64,000 nucleotides of DNA, taken from NCBI GenBank assembly GCA_029855935.1, contig JAGSHN010000005.1, forward strand, positions 96,001 to 160,000. Direction: 5' to 3'. Under the pieces are notes generated by a model. That model had not been told where the DNA came from and ran no database searches. It saw nothing but the letters and a program-made list of their open reading frames with translations. Position numbers and translations under genes: made by a program. Shown one piece after another: positions 19,180 to 40,395 of the stretch. How positions within the stretch are numbered: the stretch's first letter is position 1; each line of letters starts with the position of its first letter. This stretch comes from Candidatus Thorarchaeota archaeon. Its GTDB lineage: Archaea; Asgardarchaeota; Thorarchaeia; Thorarchaeales; Thorarchaeaceae.

Positions 19180-19370
19180 GTTCTTGCGCTCCGAGACCTT
19201 GTTCAGTAGTCATCACTGGTGCCATAATTTAAGCGCCAATGGAAACGTGGTTCAAACCGAATGTGACGGTTCGTTGACCTGCTATCATCACCGCTGGCGC
19301 GAGCCGGGTGACGAGATGCTGGCGGTGCTTCGCAAGGTTAATATCGCGGACCAGAGTGACTAACTGTCAA

Positions 19371-19475
19371 GGGCCCGTAGCTCAGCTTGGTGGAGCGGCA
19401 GGCTCATAACCTGTATGTCTGGCGGATAGTCGGACAGGGGAACGGTCAGGGGTTCAAATCCCCTCGGGCCCACCA
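19371..19475 (+). tRNA. tRNA with CAU anticodon, likely tRNA-Ile2, with 28-nt non-canonical intron at 43/44 (19415-19442)
   Basis: GGGCCCG acceptor, GCAGG-CTCATAA-CCTGT arm. Removing 19415-19442 gives a standard 77-nt cloverleaf ending ACCA. TATA-like ttaatat about 30 nt upstream. Confidence 0.9.
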
Positions 19476-19548
19476 TAGTTCTACACAAGCTACATGCCGA
19501 GAGGGTAGCGGTGTATTTTTACGACAGGAGGGAGCCCTCACACAGATT

Positions 19549-20298
19549 ATGAGTAGTATAATTGTGGGTTTCACGGCGAGCCTACTTGCGGGTGCGGCCA
19601 CCGGGTTGGGCGCGATTCCAGTGCTCTTTGGGCGCTCATTCTCACGTCGTACGCTGGATCTCATGTTGGGGTTTGCAGCTGGTGTGATGCTCGCAGCATC
19701 TGCATTCAGTCTTCTTGTGCCAGCACTGGAACATATCTATGGCGGGGTCATCGTTGTGAGCGCAGGTTTCATACTCGGAGGCGCTACGGTTCATCTTGTG
19801 GACAAGTACGTACCTCACGAACATCTGATGAAGGGGCCAGAGGGGCCAGCGAGTTCAATGCCACGAACCTGGCTCCTCGTGATTGCGATAACAATCCATA
19901 ACTTTCCAGAGGGGCTTGCAGTCGGCGTCGCCTTTGGTGCCGAGAGTATTGGAACTGGAATTACCATAGCCACCGCGATTGGCCTACAGAACATCCCAGA
20001 GGGGCTCGCTGTTGCTGCTCCCCTTGTCAGGAACGGGTACAGCAGATTGAGGGCGGGAGGAATAGCACTGCTTACGGGTCTCGTGGAGCCACTCGGAGGG
20101 GCAGTGGGAGTGATAGTCGTGACCCTCTCTCAAGTACTATTGCCTTGGGGCCTGGCATTTGCGGCAGGAGCTATGATCTTCGTGGTGAGCGACGAGATGA
20201 TACCAGAGAGTCATAGTGGAGGGTTTGAACGGTACGCCACACTAGGACTGATGGTTGGCTTTGTGATAATGATGGTTCTGGACAACTTCTTCGGCTAG
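19549..20298 (+). CDS. ZIP family metal transporter (ZupT/GufA)
   Basis: GFAAGVML, HNFPEG, QNIPEG, EMIPESH. Start reassigned downstream of the tRNA. Confidence 0.92.
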   Translation: MSSIIVGFTASLLAGAATGLGAIPVLFGRSFSRRTLDLMLGFAAGVMLAASAFSLLVPALEHIYGGVIVVSAGFILGGATVHLVDKYVPHEHLMKGPEGPASSMPRTWLLVIAITIHNFPEGLAVGVAFGAESIGTGITIATAIGLQNIPEGLAVAAPLVRNGYSRLRAGGIALLTGLVEPLGGAVGVIVVTLSQVLLPWGLAFAAGAMIFVVSDEMIPESHSGGFERYATLGLMVGFVIMMVLDNFFG

Positions 20299-20387
20299 TC
20301 GCTGTTAGAAACGGCTGGGAGAGGCGTTTTTTATAGCGTCTCGACAGCAAGCTTAATATTGACAGCAATTGGGAAAATCGATTAGGT

Positions 20388-20522
20388 GCCGCCGTGGCTC
20401 AGTCGGTAGAGCGACAGCCTGTTAAGTTGTAGTGCAATGCAGTCCGCGTTGCACGACGACTGGTCGGAGGTTCGAGATGCACAGTGATGCCATTGTGCAC
20501 GGGAACCCTCCCGGCGGCGCCA
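20388..20522 (+). tRNA. tRNA-Asn(GUU) with two non-canonical introns (43/44: 20431-20460; 59/60: 20477-20505)
   Basis: GCCGCCG acceptor, ACAGC-CTGTTAA-GTTGT arm, GGAGG/CCTCC T-stem, GCCA end. Both inserts are hairpins in BHB-like context. Confidence 0.92.
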
Positions 20523-40294: not shown

Positions 40295-40395
40295 TGGCGG
40301 GCCAGGAGGGATTCGAACCCTCGACCAACAGGTGACTCCACTCCCGTATCGGGAACTTAAGAGCCTGTCGCTATACCTGGCTTAGCCACTGGCCC
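40295..40395 (-). tRNA. tRNA-Lys(CUU) with 24-nt canonical 37/38 intron (40334-40357)
   Basis: GGGCCAG acceptor, ACAGG-CTCTTA|intron|A-CCTGT, BHB helix CTCT/GGAG, GCCA end. Confidence 0.95.

Follow-up and report, generated by a model that had tools for sequence, protein, structure and literature searches.

Two neighboring tRNA genes of a Thorarchaeota archaeon each contain an insert between the anticodon stem and the variable loop, which raises the question of whether these inserts are spliced out as introns, where they would be cut and what form of substrate they would present to the splicing endonuclease. The genes lie in a window of 64,000 nucleotides, by which we mean the whole stretch of DNA that was analyzed and which is part of contig 14 of a 2.97-Mb host assembly with 55.7% G+C. 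Rfam finds four tRNAs in this window, namely an intron-free tRNA-Glu(UUC), tRNA(CAU), tRNA-Asn(GUU) and tRNA-Lys(CUU), of which ARAGORN reports one. The Rfam match to tRNA(CAU) contains one insertion after the anticodon stem, and ARAGORN reads a 77-nt tRNA from this gene once the intron is taken out. Although Met by its anticodon, this tRNA is probably tRNA-Ile2; in acceptor stem and discriminator it does not differ from the tRNA-Ile(GAU) of the same genome. For tRNA-Asn, the Rfam match ends early at 20472 (33.5 bits). ARAGORN reads Asn once candidate intron pairs are removed, and the particular pair at 43/44 and 59/60 was chosen from intron-free orthologues rather than from the ARAGORN runs. 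The tRNA-Lys(CUU) gene is likewise read by ARAGORN after splicing in silico. The same AT-rich heptamer stands ~30 nt upstream of both the tRNA(CAU) and the tRNA-Asn gene, and we therefore take the two to be separate transcription units, each with a putative promoter of its own. A ZIP-type transporter ORF lies between them, in a gap of 913 nt. The features of the window are as follows.

19338-19344, + strand: TATA-like box of tRNA(CAU), an AT-rich heptamer ~30 nt upstream, read from the sequence; putative promoter
19371-19475, + strand: tRNA(CAU) gene with encoded CCA (Rfam RF00005 match 19371-19472, 59.9 bits)
19409-19412, + strand: tRNA(CAU) central helix (H), exon strand, nt 38-41
19413-19415, + strand: tRNA(CAU) 5' bulge, G42 and U43, then, beyond the cut, A
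19415-19442, + strand: tRNA(CAU) intron of 28 nt at 43/44 (nine intron-free orthologues and geometry)
19416-19436, + strand: tRNA(CAU) intron hairpin, 8 bp with a 5-nt loop
19437-19440, + strand: tRNA(CAU) central helix, intron strand
19441-19443, + strand: tRNA(CAU) 3' bulge, A and A (19441-19442, intronic), then, beyond the cut, C44
20353-20359, + strand: TATA-like box of tRNA-Asn, the same heptamer ~30 nt upstream, read from the sequence; putative promoter
20388-20522, + strand: tRNA-Asn(GUU) gene with two introns and encoded CCA (acceptor-stem complement and orthologues)
20425-20428, + strand: tRNA-Asn central helix (H), exon strand, nt 38-41
20429-20431, + strand: tRNA-Asn 5' bulge, G42 and U43, then, beyond the cut, A
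20431-20460, + strand: tRNA-Asn intron A of 30 nt at 43/44 (four intron-free orthologues and geometry)
20432-20454, + strand: tRNA-Asn intron A hairpin, 9 bp with a 5-nt loop
20455-20458, + strand: tRNA-Asn intron A central helix, intron strand
20459-20461, + strand: tRNA-Asn intron A 3' bulge, A and C (20459-20460, intronic), then, beyond the cut, U44
20477-20505, + strand: tRNA-Asn intron B of 29 nt in the T-loop at 59/60, strict bulge-helix-bulge
40295-40395, - strand: tRNA-Lys(CUU) gene (Rfam, 58.4 bits)
40334-40357, - strand: tRNA-Lys(CUU) intron of 24 nt at the canonical 37/38 position, strict bulge-helix-bulge

The junctions were set independently of any splicing motif, by searching each precursor against 40 related genomes for orthologues with and without the insert. 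In nine intron-free orthologues of tRNA(CAU), the first 44 bases of the gene are joined to the sequence from 19443 onward, and in four of tRNA-Asn, exon 1 through 20430 is joined to 20461 onward. The bases flanking the junctions differ, so that there is no sliding ambiguity, and both inserts are placed exactly between tRNA nt 43 and 44. These are the splice sites that an earlier note, made from the letters of the window alone, had proposed, and they are now borne out without the use of a motif. Orthologues were relied on because a loose motif scan, which asked for 3/4 central pairs and a short flanking helix of any kind, returned dozens of matches per gene and could not by itself place the introns.

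With the junctions fixed, the geometry can be read against the known cleavage rule, by which a 3-nt bulge is cut after its second base and each bulge is immediately preceded, on its 5' side, by a central helix of four positions; we checked this rule on the tRNA-Lys(CUU) intron of the window. In both 43/44 introns, exon nt 41, 40 and 39 pair with intron positions -6, -5 and -4, and A38 faces G, so that the intron strand of the central helix comprises positions -6 to -3. The 3' bulge is formed by the last two intron bases and nt 44. The 5' bulge is flanked by the central helix and the 8- or 9-bp hairpin, and the cut predicted from it coincides with the junction defined by the orthologues. The GU^A 5' bulge, the three central pairs closed by A38-G and the hairpin with a 5-nt loop that the earlier note had described are thus all found where it had placed them, and its claim that the two substrates share one relaxed geometry holds for both genes and for their relatives. 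In both, the outer helix has length 0 and the central helix 3/4 pairs, which sets them apart from strict hBHBh' motifs, while the elements of the relaxed HBh'/BHL class are present: boundaries from compact orthologues, a four-position central helix and a 3-nt 5' bulge. The predicted layout of both genes corresponds to the relaxed form published as HBh', or bulge-helix-loop-like (PMC5829648, PMC4090602). The other two introns of the window, which the earlier note had also named, are strict hBHBh' motifs: intron B of tRNA-Asn has a 4/4 central helix, an inner helix of 9 and an outer helix of 5 (the T-stem), and the 37/38 intron of tRNA-Lys(CUU) has a 4/4 central helix with inner and outer helices of 7 each.

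The statement that no outer exon helix exists needs a qualification. An adjacent outer helix is indeed lacking, but RNAfold finds that a distal exon-exon helix, nt 30-33 with 45-48, could close the 3' site of the tRNA(CAU) precursor into an internal loop, so that the statement is true only in the strict, adjacent sense.

For tRNA-Asn, a cut in a register shifted by one nucleotide deserves consideration, as it would give a 4-bp helix over nt 39-42 (4/4 central pairs, inner helix 8, outer helix 1) and lengthen the variable loop by two bases. The same C has two possible partners, as G stands both at nt 42 and at the second position of the intron. The shifted register would yield a 7-nt variable loop, however, whereas the intron-free Asn orthologues all have the 5-nt loop that only 43/44 produces. 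Moreover, three Asn orthologues show a joint change from G:C to A:U at the second intron base and its partner, as fits the 43/44 register, and the same shift in tRNA(CAU) creates a G-A clash. We regard the shifted register as very unlikely and retain 43/44 for both genes.

How readily such a motif arises by chance was estimated from shuffled introns. Taken alone, three central pairs out of the four occur in ~19-20% of these, and the relaxed class of splice motif is permissive by itself (preprint 10.64898/2026.10.13.758758); when a hairpin of 6 bp or more must also adjoin three central pairs, the share is only ~0.03-0.04%. The comparative evidence is stronger than these statistics. Among relatives, our comparison set comprises 33 introns at 43/44 in five tRNA species (13 CAU, 9 Asn, 7 Lys(UUU), 3 Lys(CUU) and 1 Ile(GAU)), the single Ile(GAU) intron coming from a genome in the host's phylum that is assembled as one contig of 1.4 Mb. 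Pairs 41:-6, 40:-5 and 39:-4 form in all of them (33/33), and all but two introns are 28-32 nt long. The intron strand co-varies with the exon strand, there being four exon tetramers, each with its own complement. Pairing falls in most combinations when strands are swapped between tRNA types, and its mean drops from 0.78 to 0.28-0.51 when the intron strand is slid by 1-4 bases. The base opposite A38 is G in most of the 33, A in two and U in four, where a full 4-bp helix results; two of the Asn orthologues have this U and hence the full helix. The A38-G apposition is therefore usual rather than obligatory, occupying a fourth position that would keep the cuts four steps apart.

This co-variation bears on whether the insert is removed at all, since the mature tRNA could instead retain it, as a long variable arm resembling those of class II. 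It sits at the start of the variable region and consists mostly of one hairpin, as such arms do, and standard tools print it as an unpaired insertion. A variable arm, however, would have no reason for the bases after its hairpin to complement nt 38-41 and to co-vary with them across five tRNA species. The close relatives that lack the insert do so cleanly and precisely, keeping a normal 5-nt variable loop, and the size and bulge composition of the insert are those of bona fide introns in the same genome. Retention is thus highly improbable, and we conclude with a probability of about 85% that the two inserts are tRNA introns of the ordinary archaeal, protein-spliced kind, located at position 43/44 and presented in the relaxed HBh' form of the bulge-helix-bulge motif.

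What the sequences establish for this 43/44 system is where the junctions lie, how the motif is laid out, that its central helix co-varies and which genes are present; from this, the following course of splicing may be proposed. Each tRNA gene would be transcribed from its own promoter, and the stable 8-9 bp intron hairpin would form first. The four intron bases 3' of the hairpin would then pair with exon nt 41-38 and displace the anticodon-stem strand 27-31, giving three standard pairs plus an A38-purine apposition that would preserve the four-position spacing. G42, U43 and the first intron base would form the 3-nt bulge between the two helices, with the 5' cut after U43; the 3' site would be in an open loop immediately 3' of the central helix, with the cut before nt 44. 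A heterotetrameric (alpha-beta)2 EndA, whose catalytic subunit carries the L1/CSL loop lysine, would cut both sites, after which RtcB would join the exons and the anticodon stem would re-form.

The genome encodes enzymes of the expected kind. There are two EndA genes, each with both domains (PF01974/PF02778), and one gene for the RtcB ligase. Proteins related to its EndA carry the label Candidatus Thorarchaeota almost without exception, in agreement with an Asgard host. The EndA on contig 5 has the Tyr, His and Lys triad and aligns gap-free to the catalytic subunit of the Aeropyrum pernix enzyme (3P1Z_B, E 4e-47) across the crenarchaeal-specific L1/CSL loop, where one of its lysines falls opposite A. 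pernix Lys44; the M. jannaschii enzyme aligns to it only from residue 61 onward. In the EndA on contig 14, Ser replaces the catalytic His. The pair is accordingly predicted to belong to the (alpha-beta)2 class with an L1/CSL loop, comprising one catalytic and one structural gene, which supplies the subunit architecture and specificity loop that the earlier note had wanted typed. Asgard archaea, including one Thorarchaeota genome, have been reported to have the L1-loop type of EndA (Kaneta 2018, PMC5829648), and (alpha-beta)2 enzymes with this loop cut both strict BHB and relaxed HBh' substrates (PMC5829648). As only one EndA gene is catalytic, a single endonuclease would have to handle the strict 37/38, strict 59/60 and relaxed 43/44 introns, and the proposal of one enzyme for three substrate types is upheld by this gene content and by the known range of the class. 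Cleavage in the relaxed conformer would then be the work of this predicted EndA.

A consequence of the layout is that the central helix takes up nt 39-41, the partners of nt 29-31 in the cloverleaf. With nt 38-41 engaged in the central helix, the anticodon-stem pairs 29-31:39-41 cannot coexist with it, and the claim that the stem must open to form the substrate follows from the geometry. The further claim that the stem is weakened by a G-U pair is not supported: such pairs are present in both genes, but they also occur in orthologues without the intron and are thus not tied to it. For the tRNA(CAU) precursor, ViennaRNA predicts the substrate fold and the cloverleaf at about equal energy (-46.3 versus -46.3 kcal/mol), with pair probabilities of ~0.19 and ~0.6, respectively; the distal helix 30-33:45-48 is predicted to aid the substrate fold. 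The best predicted fold of tRNA-Asn is neither the cloverleaf nor the substrate but an extended hairpin that buries both sites. In the local fragment, this hairpin reaches -22.2 versus -18.3 kcal/mol, ~4 kcal/mol better than either other fold, and it is due to a tandem trinucleotide at the 3' end of the intron that is found only in this genus. If these predictions hold, the enzyme would have to capture a minor conformer.

Because the substrate fold and the anticodon stem are mutually exclusive by the geometry of the motif, the intron could in principle serve as a folding or maturation checkpoint, with the open anticodon stem ordering steps such as modification of the anticodon loop. All five host tRNA species read codons starting with A and have A37 and A38, and the CAU intron is kept in 13/22 genomes of the family. 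Against this, many close relatives have no intron in the same tRNA, and other introns of the genome also need an exon helix to open, such as that of tRNA-Glu(CUC) at 10/11, whose central helix uses acceptor-stem bases. Opening of an exon helix for splicing is thus not special to 43/44, and the checkpoint idea, for which there is no specific support, is unlikely. We are also doubtful of a broader version, in which 43/44 introns form a conserved Asgard class (Thorarchaeia and at least one Odin-like genome) confined to tRNAs for A-starting codons (Ile, Met/Ile2, Asn and Lys), with melting of the anticodon stem required and the A38-purine apposition as a fourth 'pair', and in which the intron acts as a switch coupling splicing to anticodon-loop maturation or else reflects an Asgard EndA substrate rule unlike the crenarchaeal one. 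Splicing as an ordinary relaxed intron remains our preferred reading.

To place the two introns among the others of the genome, we catalogued its tRNA introns, as the earlier note had suggested, by a search for T-arms, acceptor stems and CCA ends together with Rfam matches. At least 18 intron-bearing tRNA genes were found, with at least 21 introns. Canonical 37/38 introns occur in tRNA-Lys(CUU), Arg(UCU), Arg(CCU), Pro(GGG), Pro(UGG), Trp, Leu(CAA), Ser(GGA) and a second CAU tRNA; D-loop introns in Arg(UCU), Arg(CCU), initiator Met, Asp and Phe; a 10/11 intron in Glu(CUC); and T-arm introns in Gly(CCC), Thr(CGU), Tyr and Asn. Position 43/44 is occupied only in the tRNA(CAU) and tRNA-Asn genes of the window, and only these two introns lack an outer helix completely. 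When every single and double excision was given to ARAGORN, most of the intron-bearing genes were resolved, with the exception of Phe, Glu(CUC) and Tyr, whose introns were read by eye only. In length, in the A that comes first in the 3' bulge and in the A as first intron base, the 43/44 introns match the others of the genome, and these shared features fit one enzyme handling all of them. Genes of this sort are missed or shortened by standard tools, as seen in the window from the single tRNA reported by ARAGORN (1/4) and from the truncated Rfam end of tRNA-Asn.

As to origin, the earlier note had raised the idea that one site-specific intron was copied between the two neighboring genes, as proposed for Thermoproteales. 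In that order, Fujishima in 2010 reportedly described families of transposed tRNA introns, with closely similar introns at the same position in different tRNA species. In favor of copying, introns at 43/44 are found in no fewer than five tRNA species of the family and also in an Odin-like genome. By eye, moreover, certain CAU, Lys(UUU) and Lys(CUU) introns of the genus have similar beginnings and ends, and the whole 3' half of the Lys(CUU) gene is common to Lys(UUU) in two members of the genus, a pattern that points to duplication or conversion of the gene and not to movement of the intron. The CAU and Asn introns of the window, however, share no similarity beyond their constrained ends, in agreement with the earlier observation that their sequences differ. 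Across 390 cross-tRNA comparisons of 43/44 intron cores, the mean identity is 0.50 versus 0.50 in shuffles, and the best core identity equals the maximum of the null and is reached by one pair only; these numbers are to be read with the caution that introns with only ~22 free bases give copying tests little power. The similarity among introns of different tRNA species by which the Thermoproteales-type families are recognized is thus not seen in these 390 comparisons. In two genus members, the introns of Lys(UUU) and Lys(CUU) look strikingly like the CAU intron of the window, but this likeness was rejected, as it did not exceed shuffled controls.

The distribution of the introns points the same way. 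The CAU and Asn introns are present independently of each other, with genera that have one, the other, both or neither. Within the genus, the Lys(UUU) intron at 43/44 is present in two members and absent from three, including this genome. A census of Asgard tRNA introns likewise found no intron copying, against a clear signal in Thermoproteales, and described repeated gains and losses (10.64898/2026.10.13.758758). Spread of an intron between the two tRNAs is therefore quite unlikely, and the earlier suggestion to that effect is not sustained, the sequences being unrelated and their presence uncoupled between genera. We continue to treat the two as separate introns that share a position and a splicing geometry.

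Relaxed HBh'/BHL introns at non-canonical positions were reportedly described in Crenarchaeota and Thermoproteales by Marck and Grosjean in 2003 and by Sugahara in 2008. Like the crenarchaeal and Thermoproteales cases (PMC4090602, PMC5829648), the introns described here are short, probably protein-spliced and outside 37/38, with one well-formed bulge between the central helix and the intron hairpin and a second site without an exon helix. The hosts resemble each other in having an (alpha-beta)2 EndA with the L1/CSL loop and in that the affected genes may also carry strict introns. Unlike the crenarchaeal cases, the host here is an Asgard archaeon, and unlike in Thermoproteales, there is no sign of families of introns with similar sequences. 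A close parallel is the pre-tRNA-Glu of Methanopyrus kandleri, whose HBh' intron at 20b/21 is cut efficiently by an L1-loop EndA but poorly by the organism's own enzyme, which is without the loop (PMC5829648). There too, a relaxed HBh' intron resides in a gene that also holds a strict intron, as in tRNA-Asn here, although the M. kandleri intron lies in the D-loop and ours at 43/44.

Within the Asgard archaea, tRNA introns are known to be many, multiple per gene and non-canonical, and two EndA paralogues have been described (Valentin-Alvarado 2024, PMC11291895; 10.64898/2026.10.13.758758; PMC5829648). The introns reported here resemble the published ones in their repeated gain and loss, in the lack of evidence for copying and in that their genes are missed or shortened by annotators. 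The published studies center on Atabeyarchaeia, Freyarchaeia and Jordiarchaeia, whereas our case is from Thorarchaeota, which the main text of the preprint does not mention (10.64898/2026.10.13.758758). The main texts of the Asgard intron studies do not describe a 43/44 class or a shared geometry. Position 43/44 is likewise absent from the list given in the text of a 2014 review (20/21, 22/23, 25/26, 29/30, 30/31, 45/46, 53/54, 56/57, 59/60, "etc."; PMC4090602), and a phrase search of the literature for this position returned nothing relevant.

Non-canonical tRNA introns and the L1-loop type of EndA are thus already known from Asgard archaea, and no new mechanism is involved here. The modest novelty would be that position 43/44 recurs in Thorarchaeia and in at least one Odin-like genome, always with the same HBh' layout. 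So far, these introns appear in tRNAs for A-starting codons. The tRNA(CAU) and tRNA-Asn genes provide a clean case of relaxed Asgard tRNA splicing substrates whose boundaries are fixed by orthologues. With junctions set without a motif, a relaxed substrate and an exon helix that must open, they would be well suited to testing a recombinant Asgard EndA. Eukaryotes have no closer known relatives than the Asgard archaea, and through this kinship the site choice of their EndA may bear on the restriction of the eukaryotic enzyme to 37/38.

The tRNA(CAU) gene at 19371-19475 probably encodes tRNA-Ile2 rather than tRNA-Met, as it shares an identical acceptor stem and discriminator base with tRNA-Ile(GAU) from the same genome. 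Two further CAU tRNAs are found in this genome, one of which carries A1:U72 and is the initiator, and the remaining one has a distinct acceptor stem that fits an elongator tRNA-Met. One CAU tRNA stands out for its intron:

Contig C17 of the same assembly, 179648-179788, outside the window: second CAU tRNA, 63-nt intron at 37/38

This intron far exceeds the 18-33 nt of all others and may harbour an additional element, for instance a small guide RNA. Three of the 32 contigs of the assembly (C14, C17 and C21) hold most of its tRNA genes, several of which lie within a few kb of one another. Within the window, ARAGORN recovers only one of the four tRNA genes, and Rfam detects every one of them but stops 50 nt short of the end of tRNA-Asn; routine annotation would under-count tRNAs here.

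The 3' end of tRNA-Asn intron A is a tandem trinucleotide (20455-20460), a repeat seen only in the genus of this genome, which permits an alternative pairing register with nucleotides 38-43 and nucleotide 44. As a result of this second register, the predicted best fold of tRNA-Asn is an extended hairpin that buries both splice sites and is approximately 4 kcal/mol better than either the cloverleaf or the splice-competent fold, in which nucleotides 39-41 pair with the intron strand 3' of the hairpin and A38 faces a G.

In sister genera, intron hairpins are frequently capped by a pyrimidine-rich pentaloop (A, C/U, U, U, C), and a similar pentaloop occurs in both 43/44 and 59/60 introns (loci L004, L012-L014, L083, L084, L087, L092 and L132). 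The shared pentaloop, which is absent from the introns of the genome studied here, may represent either a stable loop or a vestige of common origin.

In a related genome from another family of the phylum, the CAU tRNA orthologue (L027) has a 37/38 intron and an extra insert 3' of the anticodon stem; within this insert lies a T-arm-like sequence that repeats the T-arm of the gene itself.

Across genera, the same tRNA carries differing combinations of up to four introns, located in the anticodon stem, at 37/38, at 43/44 and in the T-arm, as seen for tRNA-Asn in sister genera (L083, L084, L087, L091 and L092) and for tRNA-Lys(UUU) (L102-L128). Judged from these gene sequences, tRNA intron positions are subject to fast turnover inside a single family.
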